DNA from: Actinomycetota bacterium
GTDB lineage: Bacteria; Actinomycetota; Acidimicrobiia; IMCC26256; PALSA-610
Assembly: GCA_003134555.1 (NCBI GenBank)
Contig: PLBO01000131.1
Coordinates: forward strand, 37,272-101,271
Direction of reading: 5' to 3'
DNA length: 64,000 bases
Shown here piece by piece: positions 7,450 through 35,146 of the stretch. Under the pieces are notes generated by a model. That model saw only the letters and a list, made by a program, of their open reading frames with translations, had not been told where the DNA came from and did not search any database. Both the position numbers and the translations under genes were made by a program. The first letter of the stretch is position 1. Each line of letters opens with the position of its first letter.

Positions 7450-7465
7450 CTGACGCCCACGTCAG
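7450..7465. promoter_or_regulatory. palindromic operator candidate, CTGAC-N6-GTCAG
   Basis: CTGACGCCCACGTCAG, 15 nt upstream of the deacylase ATG (7434, minus strand) and immediately before its GAGGAG Shine-Dalgarno. Confidence 0.6.
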
Positions 7466-7627: not shown

Positions 7628-7643
7628 TTGACGTGCGTGTCAG
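7628..7643. promoter_or_regulatory. palindromic operator candidate, variant TTGAC-N6-GTCAG
   Basis: TTGACGTGCGTGTCAG, 20 nt upstream of the ADH ATG at 7664. One mismatch to the consensus. Its spacer resembles the 31733 copy (ATGCGT versus GTGCGT). Confidence 0.5.
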
Positions 7644-21873: not shown

Positions 21874-23469
21874 TTGTCCGTGCTCCAGGTGCGCGATCTC
21901 GCAGTCGAAGTCGGTGGGCGGTTCACGCTCACCGACGGCTCGTTCTCGCTGCACGCCGGCGACAAGGTCGGGCTGGTCGGCCGCAACGGCGCCGGTAAGA
22001 CGTCTCTCTTGAAGGTGCTCGCGGGTGCAACGCCGGCCGCGCACGGCGTCGTACTCCGTCCGGAGTCGGTGGGGTTTCTTCCGCAGGACCCACCGGCGCG
22101 CGGTGCGGGCCTCGACGGCACCGCACTCTCGCACGTGTTGTCGGGTCGCGGTCTCGACGTGGCCGTCCATCGTCTCGAGGAGCTCCGCGCGAAGCTCGAC
22201 GCCGATCCGTCGGCGCGCAACGTGAAGGCCTACGGCAACGCCGAGGACGCGTTCGCGTCGGCGGGCGGATATGCGGCCGAGTCGGAGGTCAGGCGGATCG
22301 TGGCGGGCCTCGGGCTCCCACCCGACCGGCTCGATCTCCCGATCAGCGCGCTGTCGGGGGGTGAGCGGCGCCGGGCCGAGCTGGCGCGGATCTTGTTCGC
22401 GGGCGGCGACCTCATGCTCCTCGACGAGCCGACGAACCACCTCGACGTCGACGCCAAGGCCTGGCTCACGTCGTTCCTGCGGACGTACCGCGGCGCGTTG
22501 CTCGTCATCAGCCACGACCTCGCATTGCTCGACCAGTCGATCACGCGTGTCCTGCATCTCGACGAGGGCGAGATCATCGAGTACCGGGGCACCTACTCCC
22601 AGTACCTCGTCGCGCGAAAGGCCGACGAGGTGCGGCGGGCGAAGATCGCGACTCGCCAGGATTCGGAGATCCGCCGGTTGAGCACGCTCGCCGATTCGAT
22701 GCGACACCAGACCCAGAAACGAGCGCGCATCGCCAAGACTCTCGACCGCCGGGTCGACAAGCTGAGTGCCAACCGCATCGAGCTCGGCAAAGCCGATCGC
22801 TCGCTGCGCGTGAAGCTGCCCGAACCGCCTCACGCGGGGAAAGTCGCGCTCGAGGTCGTCGACCTCGCCAAGGCGTTCGGTCCCAAGGTCGTGTTCGAGG
22901 ACGTCTCGTTCGAGGTCGGGCGCGGCGAACGGCTGCTCGTGCTCGGGCTGAACGGTGCGGGCAAGACCACGCTGCTGCGGTCCCTCGTCGGTGAGCTCGA
23001 GGCGGATCTCGGGGAGGTCGAGCTCGGATACCAGGTGTCGATGGGTTACTACGCCCAGGAACACGAAGGCATCACGCCGGGCCGCCCGGTGATCGAGCAC
23101 ATCCGCGAGGCTTCGGGCGAGGGCGAGCAGTACCTCCGGGGCCTGCTCGGGATGTTCGGGCTGCGCGGCGAGCTCGCGTTCCAGGATGCCGGCACGCTGT
23201 CGGGGGGCGAGAAGACGAAGCTCGCGCTCGCGATGCTCGTGGCGGGCCGTCACAACCTGCTGTTGCTCGACGAGCCGACGAACAACCTCGATCCGCCCTC
23301 GCGCACCGCGATCGGGAACGCCCTGCGCGAATGGACGGGAGCGATGGTGCTCGTCAGCCACGACCCCGAGTTCGTCACGGAGCTCGCCCCCGATCGGGTG
23401 TTGCTCATGCCCGAAGGAGTCGTCGACTACTGGTCGGACGACCTCCTCGACCTGGTCGAGCTGGCCTGA
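21874..23469 (+). CDS. ABC-F family ATPase (tandem ABC domains, no permease)
   Basis: Two Walker A motifs (GRNGAGKTSLLK, GLNGAGKTTLLR), two signature motifs (LSGGERRR, LSGGEKTK) and a charged linker between them. The start may be TTG 21874 or GTG 21880. Confidence 0.88.
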   Translation: MSVLQVRDLAVEVGGRFTLTDGSFSLHAGDKVGLVGRNGAGKTSLLKVLAGATPAAHGVVLRPESVGFLPQDPPARGAGLDGTALSHVLSGRGLDVAVHRLEELRAKLDADPSARNVKAYGNAEDAFASAGGYAAESEVRRIVAGLGLPPDRLDLPISALSGGERRRAELARILFAGGDLMLLDEPTNHLDVDAKAWLTSFLRTYRGALLVISHDLALLDQSITRVLHLDEGEIIEYRGTYSQYLVARKADEVRRAKIATRQDSEIRRLSTLADSMRHQTQKRARIAKTLDRRVDKLSANRIELGKADRSLRVKLPEPPHAGKVALEVVDLAKAFGPKVVFEDVSFEVGRGERLLVLGLNGAGKTTLLRSLVGELEADLGEVELGYQVSMGYYAQEHEGITPGRPVIEHIREASGEGEQYLRGLLGMFGLRGELAFQDAGTLSGGEKTKLALAMLVAGRHNLLLLDEPTNNLDPPSRTAIGNALREWTGAMVLVSHDPEFVTELAPDRVLLMPEGVVDYWSDDLLDLVELA

Positions 23470-23494: not shown

Positions 23495-23510
23495 CTGACA
23501 CGAGCGTCAG
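23495..23510. promoter_or_regulatory. palindromic operator candidate, CTGAC-N6-GTCAG
   Basis: (C)CTGACACGAGCGTCAG(G), 37 nt upstream of the SBP1 ATG. Overlaps a -35-like hexamer. Confidence 0.6.
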
Positions 23511-23547: not shown

Positions 23548-24927
23548 ATGAACTCACGACGGTGCTTCGTCGCATTCACGGTTGTCATCGCGCTCGCGCT
23601 CGCCGCGTGTGGAAGCAGCAACAAAGCCACGGTTGCGCCTGCGGCCACCACCACCACGACTGCGCCGGTCGTGTCGAAGGCGCCGGGAACCGGCGTGACC
23701 GCGACGTCGATCAAGATCGGCATCTCGCTCGTCGACTTCAAGTGCATTCAGCAGTTCATCGACTTCACGCGCCCCAACCAGCAAAGGGTCTACCAGGCGT
23801 TCATCGACGACGTGAACAAGAAGGGCGGCATCAACGGCCGCAAGATCATCGCCGACTTCCACACCGAGTGCCCGCTCACCCCGACGAGTGACTTGCTCGT
23901 GCAGGTGTGCACCAAGTTCACCGACGACGACAAGGTCTTCGCAGTGATGGGCAACCTCAGCGACGCGGCGCAGTCCGCGGCGCTGCACGTCTGTATCGCC
24001 AAGAAGCATCACACGCCCGTCGTCACCTTCCAGGTGACGCAGGACATGCTCAAGCAGGTTCCACCCGGTCTGATGGTCTTCCCCGGCACGACACCCGAGC
24101 GTTCGGATGCAGTGCTGTTCCAGCTGCTGAAGAAGCAGGGCACGCTCGACGGCAAGAAGGTCGCCGTGCTTGCGCAGCAGACCTCCGAGCCAGCGGTGAA
24201 GGCGGTCGTGCTGCCCGCGATCAAGAAGATCGGCGTCGCGACCGGCACGCCGGCCTACCTCACGATCAACGGTCCCGACACGACTGCGGCGCAGTCCCAG
24301 CTCGACAGCTTCATCGAGCGCTGGAAGTCTGAGGGTGTCAACGCGCTGTTCGTCACCGGTCAGGACGCCGTCACGAAGCAGTTCATCGAGAAGGTCGTGA
24401 AGCAGATGCCGGGCGTGATCCTCCTGACCGACGTCAGTGACGCGTTGCCGCAGGGGCAGGACGAGACCAAGGCCGGCGCGAACCCCAACCCGTACGAGGG
24501 CCTGTATCTCGCCGGCGGTTACCGGGCGGCCGACTACGCCAAGAGCGACAACTGGAAGTACTGCGCCTCGATCTACAAGGCCGAGTTGGGCAAGGACTCT
24601 CCTGGGCCGCTGGCGAACATCAAGGTCAACATCGGTGGCAAGGTGCTCCAGGACCAGACGTACAACCTCGTCAACGACGCGTGCCAGATGGTCTCGACGT
24701 TCCAGGAGATCGTCACCAAGATGGGCCAGTACGTGAACGCCGACAACTGGGTCGCGACCGTCAATTCGTACGGTCCGATCGTGAACCGCGGTGGTGGTCC
24801 GTACGCCGCCCTCCGGCAGGGCAAGTACGACACCGACGACACGTTCCAGCTCCAGCAGTTCGATTCGACGCTGCCGCCCAACGGCAACTGGAAGGCACTG
24901 GGCGAGTATCAGAACATCTCCAGCTAG
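23548..24927 (+). CDS. ABC transporter substrate-binding lipoprotein (LIV / periplasmic-binding-protein type I family)
   Basis: GGGGGAGG Shine-Dalgarno 5 nt upstream. Lipobox LALAACGSS, Thr-rich linker, then GVTATSIKIGISLVDF...QAFIDDVNKKGGINGRKI, typical of Leu/Ile/Val-binding-protein homologs. Confidence 0.82.
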   Translation: MNSRRCFVAFTVVIALALAACGSSNKATVAPAATTTTTAPVVSKAPGTGVTATSIKIGISLVDFKCIQQFIDFTRPNQQRVYQAFIDDVNKKGGINGRKIIADFHTECPLTPTSDLLVQVCTKFTDDDKVFAVMGNLSDAAQSAALHVCIAKKHHTPVVTFQVTQDMLKQVPPGLMVFPGTTPERSDAVLFQLLKKQGTLDGKKVAVLAQQTSEPAVKAVVLPAIKKIGVATGTPAYLTINGPDTTAAQSQLDSFIERWKSEGVNALFVTGQDAVTKQFIEKVVKQMPGVILLTDVSDALPQGQDETKAGANPNPYEGLYLAGGYRAADYAKSDNWKYCASIYKAELGKDSPGPLANIKVNIGGKVLQDQTYNLVNDACQMVSTFQEIVTKMGQYVNADNWVATVNSYGPIVNRGGGPYAALRQGKYDTDDTFQLQQFDSTLPPNGNWKALGEYQNISS

Positions 24928-24961: not shown

Positions 24962-24987
24962 GACACCCGCCGTATCCGGCGGGTGTC
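24962..24987 (+). other. GC-rich hairpin between or over the start of the two binding-protein genes
   Basis: GACACCCGCC, a 6-nt loop, then GGCGGGTGTC: a perfect 10-bp stem. The right arm contains GTG 24983. No U-tract follows. Confidence 0.6.
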
Positions 24988-26329
24988 ACTGGTCGGGTTG
25001 CTCGCCGTCGTCACCGCTGCGTGCGGTAGCGGTGCGCATCACGCAGAAGGGGGTAGCGGCACCACGGCCAGTGGTACGACGCGGCCGCAAGACACCTCGC
25101 TCGGGACCGGGGTCACCGCGACGCAGATCAAGATCGGCATCATGATGATCGACTTCTCGTGCATCGAGCAGTTCGTCGACGCGGTCGAGCCCGACCAACG
25201 CCAGGCGTACCAGATCTTCATCGACGACATCAACGAAAAGGGCGGGATCAACGGCCGCAAGATCACGCCGGTGTACAAGTCGTACTGCCCACCCGAGCTC
25301 CAGCCCGCGGAGGAGCTGACCGCGTGCACCTCGCTCACCGACGACGAGAAGGTGTTCGCCGCGATCGGCACGCTCTACGACCCGAACGGCACCGCGCAGC
25401 TCTGCTTCGCGAAGCAGCATCGCACGGTGGTCGTCGGCAGCCCGCTGACGCAGTCGGTCATCGACCGCGGACCGCCCGGGTTCATGCTGACTCCCGACAT
25501 CACGCCGGAGCGGCGCCTGAACGTGATCATGGCGTTGCTCGAGCAGAAGCATACGCTCGAGGGGAAGAAGGTGGCGATTGTCGACATCGCAGCCAATCGG
25601 CCGCGCGTCAATTCGGTCGTCGTTCCCGCCCTGCGCGTTCTCGGTGTGCGGCGCGGTACCGATGCGACGCTTACGATCGCGAGCTCCGACACGACCGCGG
25701 CATTGGGCCAGCTCGACAGTTTCATCGAGCACTGGAAGTCCGACGACACGAACGCGTTGATCCTGGTGGGCGACGAGGTGTCTTCGAAGCAGTTCGTCGA
25801 GAAGATCAAGGCGGCGATCCCGCAGATGACACTCGTGGCGGACACGACCGGTGTGCTCACCGGCGCGCGCGACGAGCAGAAGGCGCACGTCTCGCCGAAT
25901 CCGTACGACGGCATCATCACCGCCGAGGGTCAGACCGGGGTCGAGCACACCGAGACGCCGCACTTCGCGTTCTGCCGCGACATCTGGGAGAAGGCGACGG
26001 GGAAGAAGGTGCCGTCGCCGAACGAGGTCGTGAAGCTCCCGAACGGCAAGCAGAACGACATCTACAGCGAGGTCGAGGACGCCTGTCTCTACACGAACTT
26101 CTTCGCCACGATCGCCAAGCGGGTCGGCCCGTACCTCAACACCGCGAACTGGGTGAACACCGTCGACAACTTCGGACCGATCGACGACATGTCGACGATC
26201 TACGCATCGATCCAGCGCGGCAAGTACGACGCAGACAACACCTACGGCTTGGTCGCCTACGACCCGACGATCGGCGCGGCCGGCGACTGGAAGCACGTCA
26301 CGCCGGTCGAGAACGTCTCCGGCGGCTGA
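24983..26329 (+). CDS. ABC transporter substrate-binding lipoprotein, paralog of 23548..24927
   Basis: Same motif set (GVTATQIKIGIMMIDF...QIFIDDINEKGGINGRKI) and lipobox VTAACGSG. GTG 24983 leaves no charged n-region, so the true start may be CTG 24944 (see findings). Confidence 0.8.
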   Translation: MSLVGLLAVVTAACGSGAHHAEGGSGTTASGTTRPQDTSLGTGVTATQIKIGIMMIDFSCIEQFVDAVEPDQRQAYQIFIDDINEKGGINGRKITPVYKSYCPPELQPAEELTACTSLTDDEKVFAAIGTLYDPNGTAQLCFAKQHRTVVVGSPLTQSVIDRGPPGFMLTPDITPERRLNVIMALLEQKHTLEGKKVAIVDIAANRPRVNSVVVPALRVLGVRRGTDATLTIASSDTTAALGQLDSFIEHWKSDDTNALILVGDEVSSKQFVEKIKAAIPQMTLVADTTGVLTGARDEQKAHVSPNPYDGIITAEGQTGVEHTETPHFAFCRDIWEKATGKKVPSPNEVVKLPNGKQNDIYSEVEDACLYTNFFATIAKRVGPYLNTANWVNTVDNFGPIDDMSTIYASIQRGKYDADNTYGLVAYDPTIGAAGDWKHVTPVENVSGG

Positions 26330-26339
26330 CGGCCGGCGG

Positions 26340-29300
26340 TCAGGCCTTGGCGACCTCTGCCTTCGCATTCGAGCGTTGGATCGCCCGCTCGTCGGTGCCG
26401 AGGTACGACGCGACCACGCGCGGATCCGAGCGCACCGCATCGGGGGCGCCGTGCGCGATCACCGCACCTGCCTCCATGCAGTAGATGCGGTCGCTGATCG
26501 ACATGATGAGCGGGAGGTCGTGCTCCACGACGACGAGCGTTGCGTCGAGCTCGCGCTGGACGCGCTTGATCAGCGGTCCGAACGCCTCGGCCTCGCGCTG
26601 CGCGACACCGGCGGTCGGCTCGTCGAGGCAGACGACGCGGGGCGCGACCGCGAGCACCGACGCGAGCTCGACGATGCGACGCGTTCCCGTCGACAGCTCG
26701 ACGATGAAGCGGTCGGCGTAGCGCCCGAGGCCGAGGAAGTCGATCAGCTCCGCGGCTTCGGCTCGCTTGGCGCGCTCCTTGGAGATCGACGGGGGATAGA
26801 AGAGCAGCGATCCCCAGAACGACGTCGCGCCGCGGGCCTCGAGCGCGAGCTGCACTGTCTCGCGCACGGTGAGCTCGGGGAACAACGTCGCGGCCTGGAA
26901 GGTGCGACCCAGGCCCGCACGTGCGCGCAGGTGCGGCGGTAGGCGCGACACGTCGTCGCCGAGGAGCTCGACCTTGCCCCGGCTGGGGACGTAGCCGCCG
27001 ATCGCGTTCAGGAGCGTCGACTTGCCGGCGCCGTTGGTTCCGATGAGTCCGATGACCTCGCCGGGCATCGCGTGGAACTCGATGTTGTCGACTGCGACGA
27101 GTCCGCCGAAGTCGACGGCCAACGCACTGGTCGCGATCGCGCTGCCGTCGGCGTTCGTTGCCATCGTCACGCCGGCGCGGCGCGCGAGCGAGACCGGCGG
27201 TGTCGTGACCGTCTTCGTCGGCTGCTCGGGCAGTCGTTTCTCGAGCCAGCGCAGGATCGTGCCGCGCAAGGAGTAGCCGAGTTGCGTGAAACCGCCGGGT
27301 AGGTAGAGCAGCACGATCAGCAGGCCGATGCTCGACGTGAGAAGGCCGACGGTTTGGTTCTTCGGCCAGAACAACGGGAGGCCGACGACCCACAGCGCGC
27401 CGGTGACTGCGCCCGCGAGGCTGCCGAGTCCGCCGATCACGGCCATCGCGACGATCGACAGCGAGTCCTGGACGCGAAAGAACGCGTCGTGGTAACCGAA
27501 CGTCTGGACCGTGCCCGCCAGCACGGCGCCCCCCAGTCCCGCGAGGAAGCCGCCCAACGCGAACGCCGTGAGCTTCGCGCGTGTCGGCGACACGGTGAAC
27601 GCTGCCGCGCCCGCTTCGTTCTCGCGGACGCCGACGATCGCGCGGCCGATGCCGGTGCGGCGCAGGTGCCCGACGAGGAGGAGGACGATGACGAGGGTGC
27701 CGAGCGCGAAGTAGTAGTACGCGCGGTTGTGCACCGTCAGGTCGAGGGGGCCCAGCTTGCCCCGGTCGACCTCGCCGATGCTCGAGCCCTCCGTGCCGAC
27801 GAGGATCGGGCGGGGAAAGATGTAGACCTCCGCCGCGATGGCGAAGGCCATGGTGCTGATCGCGAGCAACAGGCCCCGCACGCGCAGCGCGCCGGTGCCG
27901 ACCGCGGCGGCGACCATGCTGCTGACGGCCGCGCCCAGGAGCACCGCGAGCACGAACGGCACCCGGTGCATGCTGCCGGTGCGGTCGATCGCCGCGGGGA
28001 AGACGACCGCGCCGGCGACGATGCACAGCGCAGCGGCGATCGCCGCGATGACGCGGACACGAGTATCGCGACGGCGCGCGAGAGCGACTCCGATCGCGAT
28101 GGCCGCGACCGCGAGGAGGGCGAGCCCCCCGGCCATCGGAAACGGGCGAACCGCGCCCCTCGCGAGCCGGTTCGATCGCCAGCCGATGTCGAGCGTGACG
28201 CCGCGGATGAGCGCCGCGGCGCTCAGCGCCCCGAGCCCCGCGAACGCGGCCTGACCGAGCGACAGCTGCCCGGCCCAGCCGGTCAGCACCGTGACCGATA
28301 CCGCGATGATCGCAGTCGCCAGGACCAGTGCGTAGGCCTGTTGGTGCGACGACTGGGTGATCAGGAACGGCACGATGATCGCACCCGCGAGCGCGATCCA
28401 CGCGGTGAGATTCGGTATGCGCCGCACCCACCACACCTCCCGCAGGCGCTCGGGCACCGGGGGCACGCGCGGCGCGAACGCGAAGCTGTCGCCGAGGGTT
28501 CCGGCGTCGGCGCGGCTGATACGGGCGACGAGAACGAGCACCACCAGGAAGAGCACGAACTCGACCAGGCCCGGCGAGTTCGGGAAGTTGTACGTGAGTA
28601 CCTGGTAGAGGATCCCGATCCCGATCGCGCCGGCGGCGGTGCGCGGGAACGACGTCATGCCACCGATGAGCGCGGCGGTCAGGCCGAGCAGCAGCGTCTG
28701 GGGACCGACCTGGACGAGGTCGGTCGTGCCTCCCTGCGTCGCGTAGAGCACGAGCGTGATGCCCGAGAGGAGACCGCCGATCGTCCAGATCGCGGTCGAC
28801 ATCAGCTTCGGGCTGATCCCGGTGAGGCGCGCGAGATCGGGGTTCGTCGCCGACGCGCGGACGGCATCGCCGAACACTGTGCGACCGAGGAGCCACCAGA
28901 GCGCGAGCGTGACGATCGGCACGACGATGAGCGCGAGCACTTGCGGTCCGGTGACGACGACGTTCGTGACCTGCAGATGGAAGCCACCGAGGTGCAGGTG
29001 CCCGAGTGAGGAGATCTTCCAGTTCGAGTTCATCGGGCTCGGAAAGACCGTCTGGAACTTGCCGGTGCGGTAGTCGGGCAGCGTGCGCACGAGCGCCTGC
29101 ACCAACTCGGCCACGCCGATCGTCGCGACGAGCACGATGACGCGCGGGGCCTTGGCGAGCCGGCGGATCACGATCATCTCGATCAGCGCCCCGCCCGCGG
29201 TCGTGGTGAGGAGCGCGAGCGCGAGAGCCGGCCAGTAGGGGAAGTGCGAGCGCACGACCATGATTGCCAGCAGCGCGGCCGCGGGGACGCCGATGTCGGC

Positions 29301-29441
29301 GACGGCGAAGTTGATGACGCGGGTCGAGCGGTAGATCAAGACGATGCCCATCGCCAGGACCGACACGATGAGGCCCTGGACGAGGCCGATGAACAGGAGG
29401 TTCGACGTCGCGATGTGGGGCTGGAACAGCGACGCCACCAT
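26340..29441 (-). CDS. fused branched-chain-amino-acid-type ABC importer: LivH-like permease + LivM-like permease + LivG-like ATPase
   Basis: Single 1033-aa ORF. The LivH-like N-terminus is LFIGLVQGLIVSVLAMGIVLIYRSTRVINFAVADIG. The LivM-like middle is VLTGWAGQLSLGQAAFAGLGA. The C-terminal ATPase has Walker A GLIGTNGAGKSTLL, an LSTGTRR signature and Walker B VVCLDEPTAG. Confidence 0.85.
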   Translation of the reverse strand: MVASLFQPHIATSNLLFIGLVQGLIVSVLAMGIVLIYRSTRVINFAVADIGVPAAALLAIMVVRSHFPYWPALALALLTTTAGGALIEMIVIRRLAKAPRVIVLVATIGVAELVQALVRTLPDYRTGKFQTVFPSPMNSNWKISSLGHLHLGGFHLQVTNVVVTGPQVLALIVVPIVTLALWWLLGRTVFGDAVRASATNPDLARLTGISPKLMSTAIWTIGGLLSGITLVLYATQGGTTDLVQVGPQTLLLGLTAALIGGMTSFPRTAAGAIGIGILYQVLTYNFPNSPGLVEFVLFLVVLVLVARISRADAGTLGDSFAFAPRVPPVPERLREVWWVRRIPNLTAWIALAGAIIVPFLITQSSHQQAYALVLATAIIAVSVTVLTGWAGQLSLGQAAFAGLGALSAAALIRGVTLDIGWRSNRLARGAVRPFPMAGGLALLAVAAIAIGVALARRRDTRVRVIAAIAAALCIVAGAVVFPAAIDRTGSMHRVPFVLAVLLGAAVSSMVAAAVGTGALRVRGLLLAISTMAFAIAAEVYIFPRPILVGTEGSSIGEVDRGKLGPLDLTVHNRAYYYFALGTLVIVLLLVGHLRRTGIGRAIVGVRENEAGAAAFTVSPTRAKLTAFALGGFLAGLGGAVLAGTVQTFGYHDAFFRVQDSLSIVAMAVIGGLGSLAGAVTGALWVVGLPLFWPKNQTVGLLTSSIGLLIVLLYLPGGFTQLGYSLRGTILRWLEKRLPEQPTKTVTTPPVSLARRAGVTMATNADGSAIATSALAVDFGGLVAVDNIEFHAMPGEVIGLIGTNGAGKSTLLNAIGGYVPSRGKVELLGDDVSRLPPHLRARAGLGRTFQAATLFPELTVRETVQLALEARGATSFWGSLLFYPPSISKERAKRAEAAELIDFLGLGRYADRFIVELSTGTRRIVELASVLAVAPRVVCLDEPTAGVAQREAEAFGPLIKRVQRELDATLVVVEHDLPLIMSISDRIYCMEAGAVIAHGAPDAVRSDPRVVASYLGTDERAIQRSNAKAEVAKA

Positions 29442-31660
29442 CAGCCGCCTTCGGTGCCGAAGAAGACGGCGCGGGCGAGGTCGTCGCGGTCGAGCAGCTC
29501 CTGCGCGGAGCCCTCGAACTTCACCTCACCCTTCTCGAGGAAGATCGCGCGGTCGGAGATCGCGAGCGCGACGTTGAGCGACTGCTCGACGATGAGCATC
29601 GTCTGGCCGCGCGCTCGGAGCCGGTCGACGAGCTCGAGCATGCGCTGGACGACCACGGGCGCAAGGCCGAGTGAGAGCTCGTCGATCAAGAGGATCTCGG
29701 GCTCCTGCATGAGCACGCGCGCCAAGGCGAGCATCTGCTGCTGACCGCCGGAGAGGCTGCGGGCCAACTGTTTCGGCCGTTCGGCCAGCTCGGGGAAGAG
29801 CTCGAGGACGTCGGAGATGTGAGCGTCGATCTCGGCGCTGGTCCCGCCCCGCAACCGCGCCGCGATACCGAGGTTCTGCATGACGGTCAGGCTCGGGAAC
29901 ACACCCTTGCCGCCCGGCAGCTGCACGATCCCGTGTCGGACGCGCTGTTCCGGGGCCACGAACGTGATGTTGCGCCCGTTGAGTCGTGTGACCCCGCGCT
30001 CGGGCACCTCGAGACCGCTGATGACGCGCAGGATCGTCGACTTGCCGGCCCCGTTGGTGCCGAGCAGCGCGACGCACTCGCCGCGGTGGATCTCGAAGTT
30101 GACGTCGAAGAGCACCTGCACGGGCCCGTAGGAGAAGTCGGTGTTGACCATCTGCAACACCGGAGTGTCGACGCCGTCGACGGCGCGCTTGCGTTGCTCC
30201 TCTTGTTCCTCGAGTAACTCCTCGACGACGAGGGAGAGATCGTGGCGTATGAACCGCGCCCCGTTCATCAACAGCAGGCTGCCGATGATGCTGGTGGGAA
30301 CGAGCAGGACGAAGACGGTTGTGCGCACTCCGAACGAGTTCGTGAAGAAGTCGGCGAGGATGCTGCCGCCGAACCCGCCGATGAGCACCACGTACATGAC
30401 ACCCATGGCCACGCCGAGCCCGCGCAAGCGGTACGGGCACACGGCCTGCAGCACCGGCGTGACCATCGCGAACGCGCACGCCGTGAGCACCGATTGCGGG
30501 ATCCCGAAGATCACGAACCACACGGTGCTGTGCGTCGAGACCTGCAAGGGTGTGAACAGCGCCGACGGCATGATCAGAGCGCCGACCAGCACGAGGGCCT
30601 TCGCCGGGTCCTTGCGGTACGTTCGGTCGAAGTAGCGGCCGACGGGATACAGGAATGGCACCGCGGTCCACCCGGAGAGGCTGAGGATGAAGCCGCGCTG
30701 CAGGATGTTGGTGACGTGCAGCGTGTCGTTGAGGTACAGCACCTGCAGCGCGCCGAGCGCGAACACGCCGAACCCGAGCGCGGCGAAGGCCGCGATCGAC
30801 GTGCGGATCGTCGCGACCTTCTTCAACCGCGCGAACGCCGCCTCCATCGACGGCTGCGCGGGGTTCTCGTCCTCGATGACCTCACCGAGCACGTCCTGCT
30901 TCTCGTACTGCCCGCGCGGCGGCTCGCGCAGGAAGAACACCGCGATGGCCATGAGCGCGCCCGGTATCCCGAGCACGAAGAACGCCCAGCGCCAACCCTC
31001 GACCCCGCCGGCCCAGGTCGCGATCGCGCCGACCACGACGGGGCTGAGGTTCCCCAGCACCTGCTGGCCGATGTTCATCGCGGCCGACATCCGGGCCCGG
31101 ATACCGATCGGGTAGTTATCGGCGAGTAGCGGCTGGTGCACGGCGAGGTTGTTCGCCTTGGCCACGCCGGTGAGGCACAGCGCCCAGAACAAGACGAACG
31201 CGCTGCCCGCGAGTCCGGACAAGAAGGTGAAGAGCGCCGCTAACAACGTGGCGAAGCCGACGATCGGGATGCGACGCGTGCGATCCGCGAGCCAACCCAT
31301 CGGGATCGCGCCGAGCGCGTAGAAGAGGCTCGACGCCGAGGCGATGAACACGACTGCGCCGCTGCTGATGTGGAAGGTCTGGCGCAGCTCGGGCTCGATC
31401 GTCTGCACCGCGTTCAGGGTCAGCTGGTCGAGCGACACCAACAGCCCGAGCACGACGAACATGCTCACGCCGCCTTTGGCGAACGCGCCCCGGAGACTCA
31501 CCGGCTCGGAGTTGACCCCCGGGAGGAGGTCGTCGGGGAAGATCACCTGCTCTTTGGCCCGGGCCTGCGCTTCTTGGCGGGCCGCCTCTTCGTCGAGAAC
31601 TGCCGCCGCGAGCGACGCGGCGCTGCCCTCGGGTTCGCCAGGTGTCTGCAGATCGGTCAC
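29441..31660 (-). CDS. MFS-type membrane domain fused to LivF-like ABC ATPase
   Basis: 739-aa ORF. The N-terminal ~490 aa have about 12 TM spans with MFS motif-A-like GWLADRTRRIP and WRWAFFVLGIPGALMAIAVFFLREP. The C-terminal ~240 aa have Walker A LLGTNGAGKSTIL, signature LSGGQQQ and Walker B ILLIDELS. The stop overlaps the downstream ATG (TGATG). Confidence 0.82.
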   Translation of the reverse strand: MTDLQTPGEPEGSAASLAAAVLDEEAARQEAQARAKEQVIFPDDLLPGVNSEPVSLRGAFAKGGVSMFVVLGLLVSLDQLTLNAVQTIEPELRQTFHISSGAVVFIASASSLFYALGAIPMGWLADRTRRIPIVGFATLLAALFTFLSGLAGSAFVLFWALCLTGVAKANNLAVHQPLLADNYPIGIRARMSAAMNIGQQVLGNLSPVVVGAIATWAGGVEGWRWAFFVLGIPGALMAIAVFFLREPPRGQYEKQDVLGEVIEDENPAQPSMEAAFARLKKVATIRTSIAAFAALGFGVFALGALQVLYLNDTLHVTNILQRGFILSLSGWTAVPFLYPVGRYFDRTYRKDPAKALVLVGALIMPSALFTPLQVSTHSTVWFVIFGIPQSVLTACAFAMVTPVLQAVCPYRLRGLGVAMGVMYVVLIGGFGGSILADFFTNSFGVRTTVFVLLVPTSIIGSLLLMNGARFIRHDLSLVVEELLEEQEEQRKRAVDGVDTPVLQMVNTDFSYGPVQVLFDVNFEIHRGECVALLGTNGAGKSTILRVISGLEVPERGVTRLNGRNITFVAPEQRVRHGIVQLPGGKGVFPSLTVMQNLGIAARLRGGTSAEIDAHISDVLELFPELAERPKQLARSLSGGQQQMLALARVLMQEPEILLIDELSLGLAPVVVQRMLELVDRLRARGQTMLIVEQSLNVALAISDRAIFLEKGEVKFEGSAQELLDRDDLARAVFFGTEGG

Positions 31661-31732: not shown

Positions 31733-31748
31733 CTGACATGCGTGTCAG
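31733..31748. promoter_or_regulatory. palindromic operator candidate, CTGAC-N6-GTCAG
   Basis: CTGACATGCGTGTCAG sits in the 127-bp divergent region. It lies 72 nt from the MFS-LivF ATG (31660, minus strand) and 39 nt from the OMT ATG (31788). Confidence 0.6.
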
Positions 31749-31787: not shown

Positions 31788-32456
31788 ATGGCAGCCGCGC
31801 GTCCTCCGAAGTCGTTTCTTCTCTCGTCCGAGCTCGCCGACTACATCGTCTCGCACGGCACACCACCGGATGGCGTGCAGCAGGCGCTGATCAAGGAGAC
31901 CGCCGCCCTCGGCGCGGTCGCGGGCATGCAGATCGCGCCCGAGCAGGGCGCGTTCCTCACGGTGTTGACGCGCCTGATCGGTGCGCGGCGCGCGATCGAG
32001 ATCGGCACGTTCACCGGCTACTCGGCTCTGTGCATCGCCCGAGGACTCCCCGACGACGGCCGGCTGCTGTGTTGCGACGTCTCCGAGGAGTGGACGGCGG
32101 TGGGCAAGCGGGCCTGGGCAACAGCGGGCGTGGCCGATCGGATCGACCTGCGAATCGCGCCCGCGCTCGAAACGCTCGCGGCGCTCCCGGCCGACGCCCA
32201 GTTCGATCTGGCGTTCATCGACGCCGACAAGCCGAACTACGCGAACTATTTCGACGCGCTGCTGCCCAAGATGCGCACCAACGGTGCGATCCTCGTCGAC
32301 AACGTGCTGTGGGACGGTCGCGTGGTGAAGCCCGACGCCGACGACGAGAACACGGTGGCGATTCGCGCCTTCAACGACAAGGTGACACGCGACGATCGCG
32401 TCGACACCGTGATGCTGCCGATCGCCGACGGACTCACGCTCGCCCGCAAGCGGTAA
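31788..32456 (+). CDS. class I SAM-dependent O-methyltransferase (caffeoyl-CoA OMT-like, family 3)
   Basis: 222 aa. Motifs: QGAFLTVLTRLIGARRAIEIGTFTGYSALCIARGLPDDGRLLCCD, FIDADKPNYANYF and ILVDNVLWDGRV. No Shine-Dalgarno. TAGCGT lies 6 nt upstream of the ATG, so the gene is possibly leaderless. Confidence 0.85.
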   Translation: MAAARPPKSFLLSSELADYIVSHGTPPDGVQQALIKETAALGAVAGMQIAPEQGAFLTVLTRLIGARRAIEIGTFTGYSALCIARGLPDDGRLLCCDVSEEWTAVGKRAWATAGVADRIDLRIAPALETLAALPADAQFDLAFIDADKPNYANYFDALLPKMRTNGAILVDNVLWDGRVVKPDADDENTVAIRAFNDKVTRDDRVDTVMLPIADGLTLARKR

Positions 32457-33106: not shown

Positions 33107-33439
33107 ATGACGATCGGGACCACGCGTCGGATCGATCAGCTGGGACGAGTCGTCGTCCCGGTCGAGCTCCGCAGGACGCTCGCGATCCGCGAAGGAGACC
33201 TCCTCGAGGTCACGGCCGAGGACGGCCGACTCATTCTGCGCAAGGTCGCGCCCCAGTGTGCGCTCTGCGGGCGCCATGACAACCTGATGGACCTGCGCGA
33301 GAAACCCCTGTGCCGTGATTGTGTGCGCGAGATCAGGCTCGAGCCGGAGTGCGCGGTGTGCGGACGGCTCGACAACCTGGTCGAGCTGCGCGACCAGCAC
33401 GTCTGCCGCGACGGCGCGCACGAGATCAGCATCGTCTGA
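33107..33439 (+). CDS. AbrB/MazE/SpoVT-type DNA-binding protein with duplicated Cys-rich C-terminal module
   Basis: The N-terminus (RRIDQLGRVVVPVELRRTLAIREGDLLEV) is a SpoVT-AbrB swapped-hairpin motif. The C-terminus has two 31-aa repeats, PQCALCGRHDNLMDLREKPLCRDCVREI and PECAVCGRLDNLVELRDQHVCRDGAHEI. Confidence 0.8.
   Translation: MTIGTTRRIDQLGRVVVPVELRRTLAIREGDLLEVTAEDGRLILRKVAPQCALCGRHDNLMDLREKPLCRDCVREIRLEPECAVCGRLDNLVELRDQHVCRDGAHEISIV
33251..33436 (+). repeat. 93-nt (31-aa) internal tandem duplication inside the AbrB-type CDS
   Basis: Residues 49-79 and 80-110 align without gaps as P[QE]CA[LV]CGR.DNL[MV][DE]LR...[LV]CRD[CG]..EI. Confidence 0.85.
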
Positions 33440-35130: not shown

Positions 35131-35146
35131 CTGACGTGGGCGTCAG
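35131..35146. promoter_or_regulatory. palindromic operator candidate, CTGAC-N6-GTCAG
   Basis: CTGACGTGGGCGTCAG, 20 nt upstream of the dehydrogenase GTG (35110, minus strand). It is the exact reverse complement of the 7450 copy, spacer included. Confidence 0.6.

Follow-up and report, generated by a model that had tools for sequence, protein, structure and literature searches.

In a 64,000-nucleotide stretch of an actinobacterial genome (contig PLBO01000131.1; hereafter the window), one uninterrupted open reading frame (ORF) of 739 aa (29441..31660, minus strand) joins a complete major facilitator superfamily (MFS) domain to the LivF-type nucleotide-binding domain (NBD) of an ATP-binding cassette (ABC) importer. 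Textbooks treat primary (ABC) and secondary (MFS) transporters as two distinct ways of moving solutes across membranes. In the present family, which is conserved in Acidimicrobiia and some Streptomycetaceae and abundant in soil and peat metagenomes, the two are obligatorily linked, as an entire MFS domain is fused to the ATPase of an ABC importer. The reading that we favor, at a probability of roughly 45%, is that the MFS–LivF protein belongs to a single importer complex in which the ATPase cycle would gate a second solute path, or a sensor, formed by the MFS domain. Three features are taken as signs of functional coupling between the two halves: (i) an apparent loss of the proton relay in the MFS domain, (ii) a rigid and conserved linker and (iii) a changed Q-loop together with what look like asymmetric ATP sites.

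The fusion gene and its carriers

Translation of MFS–LivF begins at a GTG codon with GGAGAG just 5′ of it, and its TGA stop and the start ATG of the following 1033-aa ORF have one base in common (TGATG). This overlap and a domain scan confirm the translational coupling to a downstream LivH–LivM–LivG fusion that had been claimed in an earlier reading of the sequence alone (the original prediction), as well as the joining of two modules in one continuous frame. Pfam places MFS_1 at residues 75–425 of the fusion (E = 4e-37; 128 bits against a cut-off of 33.4) and ABC_tran at residues 518–661 (E = 2e-29), and finds BCA_ABC_TP_C in the downstream partner. The C-terminal half scores best against the NCBIfam models UrtE and LivF, with 183 and 168 bits, respectively, but reaches neither equivalog cut-off (285.8 and 441 bits). 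All of the motifs quoted originally are present: GWLADRTRRIP, WRWAFFVLGIPG (residues 223–234), GTNGAGKST (534–542), LSGGQQQ (636–642) and ILLIDELS (656–663). Public annotations of such proteins are generic, and include ‘ATP-binding protein’, ‘MFS transporter’ and ‘ABC-type branched-chain amino acid transport ATPase component / predicted MFS permease’.

A homologue scan with one genome per species returned 80 loci at 40–98% identity. Most are from Acidimicrobiia, and cultured Streptomycetaceae are represented by strain NBC_01309 (two copies), Streptomyces nymphaeiformis, Yinghuangia aomiensis and Embleya sp. All 38 diverse homologues that were checked, which span the same range of identity and both taxa, keep the fused frame open over its full length. 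Contigs of independent peat and soil studies span the domain junction (30150–30250) and show no indel there; they measure 15.4 kb (0 differences), 431 nt (30037–30467) and 696 nt (30123–30598). In addition, two runs labelled as soil metatranscriptomic contain short contigs with at least 95% identity over 29979–30558, which hints weakly that MFS–LivF is transcribed in a close relative, DNA carry-over being possible.

These observations bear on whether the gene could be an artefact of assembly or annotation, i.e., whether two separate genes were merged by the loss of a stop codon, by a frameshift or by chimeric joining. The window comes from a metagenome-type organism, represented in peat and soil runs, and frameshifts are present in some long-read metagenome-assembled genomes (MAGs) among its relatives. 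Such an origin is nevertheless scarcely conceivable, given that the single frame is kept in diverse loci from many projects, that the junction is covered by contigs of different studies, that the linker is conserved at the protein level and that the frameshifted relatives break at various sites rather than at the junction. Chimeric assembly in particular is ruled out by the 38 open frames and the indel-free independent contigs. The fusion is real, old and common in soil Actinomycetota.

Matches to MFS–LivF or LivH–LivM–LivG that are split between different frames occur in loci L024, L027, L055, L056, L064, L066, L069, L070, L073, L075 and L077. These are mainly long-contig MAGs labelled ‘uncultured’; their breaks fall at varied places, none of them at the domain junction, and probably represent assembly indels, not pseudogenes. 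Two other loci (L068 and L076) carry a second, divergently oriented MFS–LivF paralogue with an adjoining binding-protein gene a few kb from the main copy, forming a mirror-image pair.

An exhaustive search with the MFS half against 1.84 billion representatives yielded 170 clusters at E ≤ 1e-30. All matches that cover the full query are ~700–750 aa long, and the remaining matches are fragments. Among five apparently MFS-only proteins of 458–542 aa that were inspected, three are plainly frameshifted fusions, two of which enter NBD sequence (‘LQVRNLDFSYG...’) before continuing in out-of-frame, Arg-rich text; the other two are ambiguous. Apart from these two cases, no stand-alone member of this MFS subfamily was seen in that search. 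A corresponding search for stand-alone relatives of the NBD gave solely N-truncated fragments of the fusion, at 68% identity or more, and did not identify the closest free LivF. One metagenome representative of 856 aa (P0212) contains in one ORF both Peripla_BP_6 (residues 41–318) and, from residue 487 onward, the beginning of this MFS subfamily. It could be a genuine binding protein–MFS fusion or a merged gene call, the latter being conceivable because a binding-protein gene lies directly upstream in some loci.

Fold, conserved motifs and cavity of the MFS half

The AlphaFold2 model of the full-length protein has a pLDDT of 80.7 and a pTM of 0.72. In a fold search with this model NBD matches dominated, and a separate model of the MFS half alone was therefore built (pLDDT 77.9). 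The MFS half is modeled with 12 transmembrane (TM) helices, two short helices in the central loop and an extension of TM12 into a helix spanning residues 471–493; an N-terminal helix at residues 14–38 has low pLDDT. Foldseek returned 478 PDB matches to the MFS-only model at E ≤ 0.001, and all of the listed matches are MFS transporters. Among solved structures, the fold comes closest to those of HnSpns (a bacterial homologue of Spinster), DgoT, SPNS2 (TM-score up to 0.80), SPNS1, sialin and MCT1, and a comparison of the family profile with the PDB ranks HnSpns (E = 1e-22), SPNS1 (2e-17) and DgoT (4e-14) in the same group. Profile, fold and motif evidence therefore agree with the original assignment of the N-terminal half to the MFS. 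The similarity to Spinster proteins (HnSpns, SPNS1/2) and to the anion:cation symporter (ACS) DgoT comprises the 12-helix fold, motif A and the WRW/TM6 motif. In contrast, sequence identity is just ~17–22%, and the present family has extra cytoplasmic helices at both termini and a covalently attached ABC ATPase.

Conservation was evaluated in an alignment of 39 sequences. In motif A, in the loop between TM2 and TM3, D126 and R130 are invariant and R127 is conserved at 97%; a second copy in loop 8–9, FDRTYR (residues 344–349), has an invariant D345 and R349 at 97%. The family thus has both motif A and its pseudo-repeat at the positions expected for an MFS transporter. Further invariant residues in the MFS half are D181–Y183–P184–R188, P409–R411–R413 and GG–EGWRW (218–225, including WRW at 223–225). 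The central loop is nearly constant in length and contains the invariant residues P247, R249 and R278. The linker (VVEELLEEQEE...) is almost free of gaps, with D474 invariant and I471, V479, E481, L482, E484, E485 and E488 at 90% or more. In the N-terminal extension, G48 is invariant and E25, L46, P47 and V49 reach at least 90%. The near-constant length of the central loop and of the acidic linker is atypical both for MFS loops and for passive tethers.

The MFS half evolves as slowly as the permease domains. Across loci, its identity tracks that of LivH and LivM: in the 42–60% identity bin, it is 47.5% for the MFS half, 45.9% for LivH and 48.9% for LivM, compared with 58–61% for the ATPase domains and 26% for the binding protein.

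The central cavity departs from that of the closest characterized relatives. Profile alignment places the TM4 glutamate of DgoT (E133) and HnSpns (E129) at K168, the TM1 Asp–Arg pair at positions 81–82 and the motif-B Arg at position 161; entry 6e9o, an E133Q variant, has Q there and so confirms the DgoT column. The residues of the window protein are D78, T81, L82, L161, K168, H175 and R322. Because of this residue pattern, the network of TM1 Asp–Arg, TM4 motif-B Arg and TM4 Glu found in Spinster and ACS proteins, and with it their proton relay, is by alignment absent from the MFS half. Throughout the alignment, position 168 is K (28 sequences) or Q (11) and is never acidic, R322 does not vary and position 78 holds an acid in every sequence (37 D, 2 E).

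The remaining charges covary. An acid at position 81 is accompanied by R161 in 25 of 25 sequences, P81 by N161 in 6 of 6, and T81 by a residue at 161 that is not basic (7 hydrophobic, 1 Gln). Likewise, R82 occurs with Q168 (11/11) and a residue other than Arg at 82 with K168 (28/28). One acidic and at least one basic cavity residue therefore seem to be maintained through what look like compensatory relocations. This covariation backs the fold assignment and suggests selection on the cavity, beyond that on the cytoplasmic face. It is tempting to speculate that an amino-acid-like zwitterion would fit into such a cavity, with its one acid and one base.

Importer partners, ATP sites and the role of the MFS half

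A LivH–LivM–LivG ORF of 930–1096 aa lies directly 3′ of MFS–LivF in almost all loci examined, at a distance of −8 to +15 nt and often with the junction CTGATG. This adjacency strongly backs the earlier suggestion that the ATPase half would work in the LivH–LivM–LivG importer. Two BPD_transp_2 domains, LivG- and LivF-type ATPases and Peripla_BP_6 proteins are encoded together, which is the gene content of HAAT importers (TC 3.A.1.4), such as E. coli LivJ/K–LivHMGF and cyanobacterial UrtABCDE. We infer that the giant polypeptides of the two overlapping genes and the two binding proteins would form one binding-protein-dependent, HAAT-type (Liv/Urt-like) ABC importer. In this complex, LivH–LivM–LivG would supply both permease domains and one ATPase, and the C-terminal domain of the 739-aa protein would supply the second, LivF-type ATPase. 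The MFS domain would be located beside the importer, held at a fixed distance from the ATPase by the rigid conserved helix.

The similarities to known HAAT importers also include the BCA_ABC_TP_C tail of the LivG-type ATPase and the H-loop Gln of the LivF/UrtE-type ATPase. The differences are that the four subunits are contained in two chains, that LivF has a 500-residue N-terminal MFS module, that none of the LivF, LivG, UrtE and UrtD equivalog cut-offs is reached and that both ATPases have altered motifs.

The LivF domain closely matches the T. maritima structure 1ji0 (E = 3e-48; TM-score 0.91). The original description of a complete LivF-like NBD holds for its LivF/UrtE type, for Walker A (GTNGAGKST), for the signature (LSGGQQQ) and for Walker B and the adjacent glutamate (IDELS; D660 and E661 invariant), to which the LivF-type H-loop Gln (IVEQS) can be added, but not for the Q-loop. 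This loop reads LPGGKG, with G583 and G584 invariant in 39 of 39 sequences, and so lacks the Gln/Glu of the LivF-type PEGR motif, which is present in 1ji0 (VPEGRR) and in a stand-alone LivF from Acidimicrobiia (locus L036, IPEGRG). The LivG domain has a canonical Walker A, Q-loop (RTFQ), Walker B (LDEPT) and H-loop (EHD). Its signature, in the near-invariant segment LSTGTRR, is LSTGT in 25 of 32 homologues, LSTGS in 4 and LSVGF in 1 (2 were not read); the corresponding MJ1267 sequence is LSGGQ.

In a head-to-tail NBD dimer, the LivF ATPase would have to pair with LivG. One ATP site would then be a consensus site, composed of Walker A, Q-loop, Walker B and H-loop of LivG and the LSGGQ signature of LivF. 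The other would be a non-consensus site, with Walker A, the Q-loop Gly and the H-loop Gln from LivF and the LSTGT signature from LivG. Judging from its motifs, this second site is probably slow in hydrolysis, limited to ATP binding, or regulatory. The Q-loop normally touches the coupling helix of the permease, and because this contact element is changed throughout the family, the substitution also hints at altered communication between the NBDs and the membrane domains.

For the MFS domain, the original prediction had offered three roles: a membrane tether, a second substrate path or a sensor. The data argue against a passive tether and refine, more than decide between, the other two options. 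In the mechanism that we favor, the MFS domain would be an intact Spinster/DgoT-like unit, still able to switch conformation, and would either open a second route for a small charged solute, identical or related to that of the importer, or act as a gate that senses such a substrate. Its switching between inward- and outward-facing states would be gated by the nucleotide state of the LivF–LivG pair and not by protons. We prefer this mechanism because the switching motifs and a charged cavity are kept, the proton relay is lost and the MFS half is never found alone, a combination that suggests an MFS carrier controlled by an ATPase rather than by protons. We give only a small chance to a stronger version, a mechanical hybrid of the two transporter superfamilies that are the largest, with an ATP-driven MFS pathway in which motion of the LivF–LivG dimer would drive alternating access via the TM12 linker helix and the cytoplasmic face, beside or in series with LivH–LivM and with the binding proteins shared.

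Several points weigh against ATPase-controlled gating: (i) Contact of the MFS domain with the NBDs or with LivH/LivM is postulated. (ii) The ‘degenerate site’ is presumptive, as LivF proteins generally have the H-loop Gln and ABC transporters elsewhere often retain some activity when the Q-loop is mutated. (iii) Per-helix conservation ranges from 0.57 to 0.73 and does not clearly separate cavity from peripheral helices. (iv) The covariation in the cavity derives from few clade splits and thus reflects few independent events. (v) Most of the Spinster/DgoT cavity charges are gone in the clade of the window protein itself (T81, L82 and L161), which would also fit a non-transporting role.

Two other roles have to be considered alongside ATPase-controlled gating. 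The MFS domain could be an independent secondary carrier, serving as a low-affinity, high-capacity route for the same nutrient or as an exporter or exchanger of a related metabolite; the fusion would then secure only co-expression, 1:1 stoichiometry and co-localization, and ATP would have no influence on the MFS cycle. MFS carriers generally require no ATPase, the fold and the gating motifs are complete, and the cavity, with D78, R322 and a positive charge kept as R82 or K168, would be well suited to zwitterions or anions. An independent carrier is nonetheless doubtful, since the TM4 proton-coupling Glu is K or Q in all members and the TM1 acid/TM4 Arg pair is neutralized in this clade. Moreover, the linker is a conserved helix of fixed length instead of a floppy segment, the central loop is unusually conserved and the apparent lack of stand-alone subfamily members would be odd for a domain that works alone.

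Alternatively, the MFS domain might not transport at all, and might instead be a membrane anchor or scaffold that docks LivF beside LivH–LivM, or a transceptor-like sensor that tunes the ATPase to substrate or membrane state. Such a role would explain why conservation peaks on the cytoplasmic face (both motif A copies, central loop, linker and N-terminal motif) and why several Spinster/DgoT cavity charges have been lost in this clade; in addition, LivF would otherwise be the sole soluble part of an importer whose other three domains form one chain. We consider it unlikely, because 12 helices retained at the rate of the permease domains over 40–98% identity would be a costly anchor, motif A and its partners serve rocker-switch motion, and the compensatory charge swaps imply selection on the cavity.

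Full-text literature searches found no published description of the MFS–LivF architecture, and a Saier-lab comparative paper contains no mention of it. The ArsB/ArsA arsenite pump is a precedent for a carrier-type membrane protein associated with an ATPase and a changed energy coupling, but ArsB lies outside the MFS and ArsA outside the ABC ATPases; the two are separate subunits and work without a binding protein or a second permease. Heterodimeric ABC transporters such as TM287/288, TAP and CFTR, which are exporters or channels with type IV folds, also combine a consensus with a non-consensus nucleotide site in one NBD dimer; here, in contrast, the asymmetry would occur in a binding-protein-dependent importer and coincide with an MFS fusion. 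The new elements in the present system are the invariant LivF Q-loop Gly and the LivG LSTGT signature, the conserved gating motifs, central loop and linker, and the replaced proton-relay residues with their covarying charge swaps.

If ATP gates or drives the MFS cycle, the system would represent a new coupling mode and would lend itself to studying how one energy coupling can replace another on an MFS scaffold, and ATP coupling of an MFS domain, if demonstrated, would be categorically new. Even on conservative readings, these loci define a nutrient importer subfamily that is large, unstudied and carried by dominant, uncultured actinobacteria of soil. The culturable hosts Streptomyces nymphaeiformis, Embleya and Yinghuangia make direct testing feasible.

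Locus conservation and regulation

Table 1 Coordinates of the MFS–LivF gene, its parts and associated features in the window.
Feature	Position	Strand	Evidence
MFS–LivF fusion gene, 739 aa	29441..31660	-	single ORF; MFS_1 + ABC_tran; 80 related loci, fusion intact in 38/38 checked
N-terminal cytoplasmic extension, residues 1–62: acidic amphipathic helix, then conserved LLPGV motif (46–49)	31475..31660	-	alignment; AlphaFold2
12-helix MFS domain, residues 63–470, Spinster/DgoT-like	30251..31474	-	Pfam MFS_1; AlphaFold2; Foldseek; profile vs PDB
MFS motif A GWLADRTRRIP, residues 122–132, loop TM2–3	31265..31297	-	conserved residues in alignment
Acidic linker helix of fixed length, continuing TM12, residues 471–500, IRHDLSLVVEELLEEQEEQRKR...	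30161..30250	-	alignment; AlphaFold2
LivF/UrtE-type nucleotide-binding domain, residues 501–739	29444..30160	-	ABC_tran; UrtE/LivF scores; 1ji0 match
Q-loop position, Gly583–Gly584 instead of Gln/Glu	29909..29914	-	invariant in 39/39
LivH–LivM–LivG triple fusion, 1033 aa, translationally coupled	26340..29441	-	two BPD_transp_2 + ABC_tran + BCA_ABC_TP_C (Pfam)
Substrate-binding protein 2 (Peripla_BP_6), convergent with the transporter genes	24983..26329	+	Pfam E 9e-12
Substrate-binding protein 1 (Peripla_BP_6)	23548..24927	+	Pfam E 4e-13
O-methyltransferase (Methyltransf_3), divergent from MFS–LivF, sharing the palindrome region	31788..32456	+	domain scan
Palindromic operator-like site CTGACATGCGTGTCAG, between MFS–LivF and the divergent O-methyltransferase gene	31733..31748	.	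motif scan
Palindrome of the same type, upstream of the binding-protein operon	23495..23510	.	motif scan

The two tandem binding proteins are 42% identical to each other (tblastn). Two such paralogues are also found in many close relatives, and one in more distant loci. A homologous binding protein is encoded near 57 of the 80 loci, with varying position and strand, and no other broadly conserved neighbor was found among these 80 loci. No close solved or curated relatives of the binding proteins were identified, and comparison with the PDB gave no useful match. Both are very remote from LivJ, and the substrate therefore need not be a branched-chain amino acid.

The most common of the other neighbors are an O-methyltransferase (23 loci), a 2-hydroxyacid dehydrogenase (16) and a class II aldolase (12), almost all in the closer clades. 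The 23 loci with the O-methyltransferase include four from clades at ~50% identity. Within LivM, an insertion of ~60 residues with two hydrophobic stretches (27965–28145, minus strand; residues ~433–492 of LivH–LivM–LivG) is restricted to the close clade and gapped in at least 70% of homologues; it possibly forms two extra TM helices.

The operon was originally placed behind a palindromic site; this holds, as the motif scan locates CTGACATGCGTGTCAG 73 nt upstream of the MFS–LivF start. The underlying 16-bp motif, CTGACR–N4–YGTCAG (up to 2 mismatches), occurs 6 times in the window compared with 1.5 expected: at 574–589, 7450–7465, 7628–7643, 23495–23510, 31733–31748 and 35131–35146, the last of these before a 2-hydroxyacid dehydrogenase/class II aldolase operon. 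It recurs ~55–175 nt upstream of MFS–LivF in 23 related loci, and in L004, L009 and L024 further matches are located on the far side of the binding-protein genes. On the basis of these recurrent sites, the transporter and binding-protein genes appear to form one regulon in this clade.

Two further genes are of note. An ABC-F-type protein with two ABC_tran domains, ABC_tran_Xtn and no membrane domain is encoded just upstream of the binding-protein operon (21874–23469, plus strand). A candidate local regulator is a small DNA-binding protein of the AbrB/MazE type that ends in a double zinc ribbon; its gene (33107–33439, plus strand) is flanked by those of the O-methyltransferase and the aldolase.

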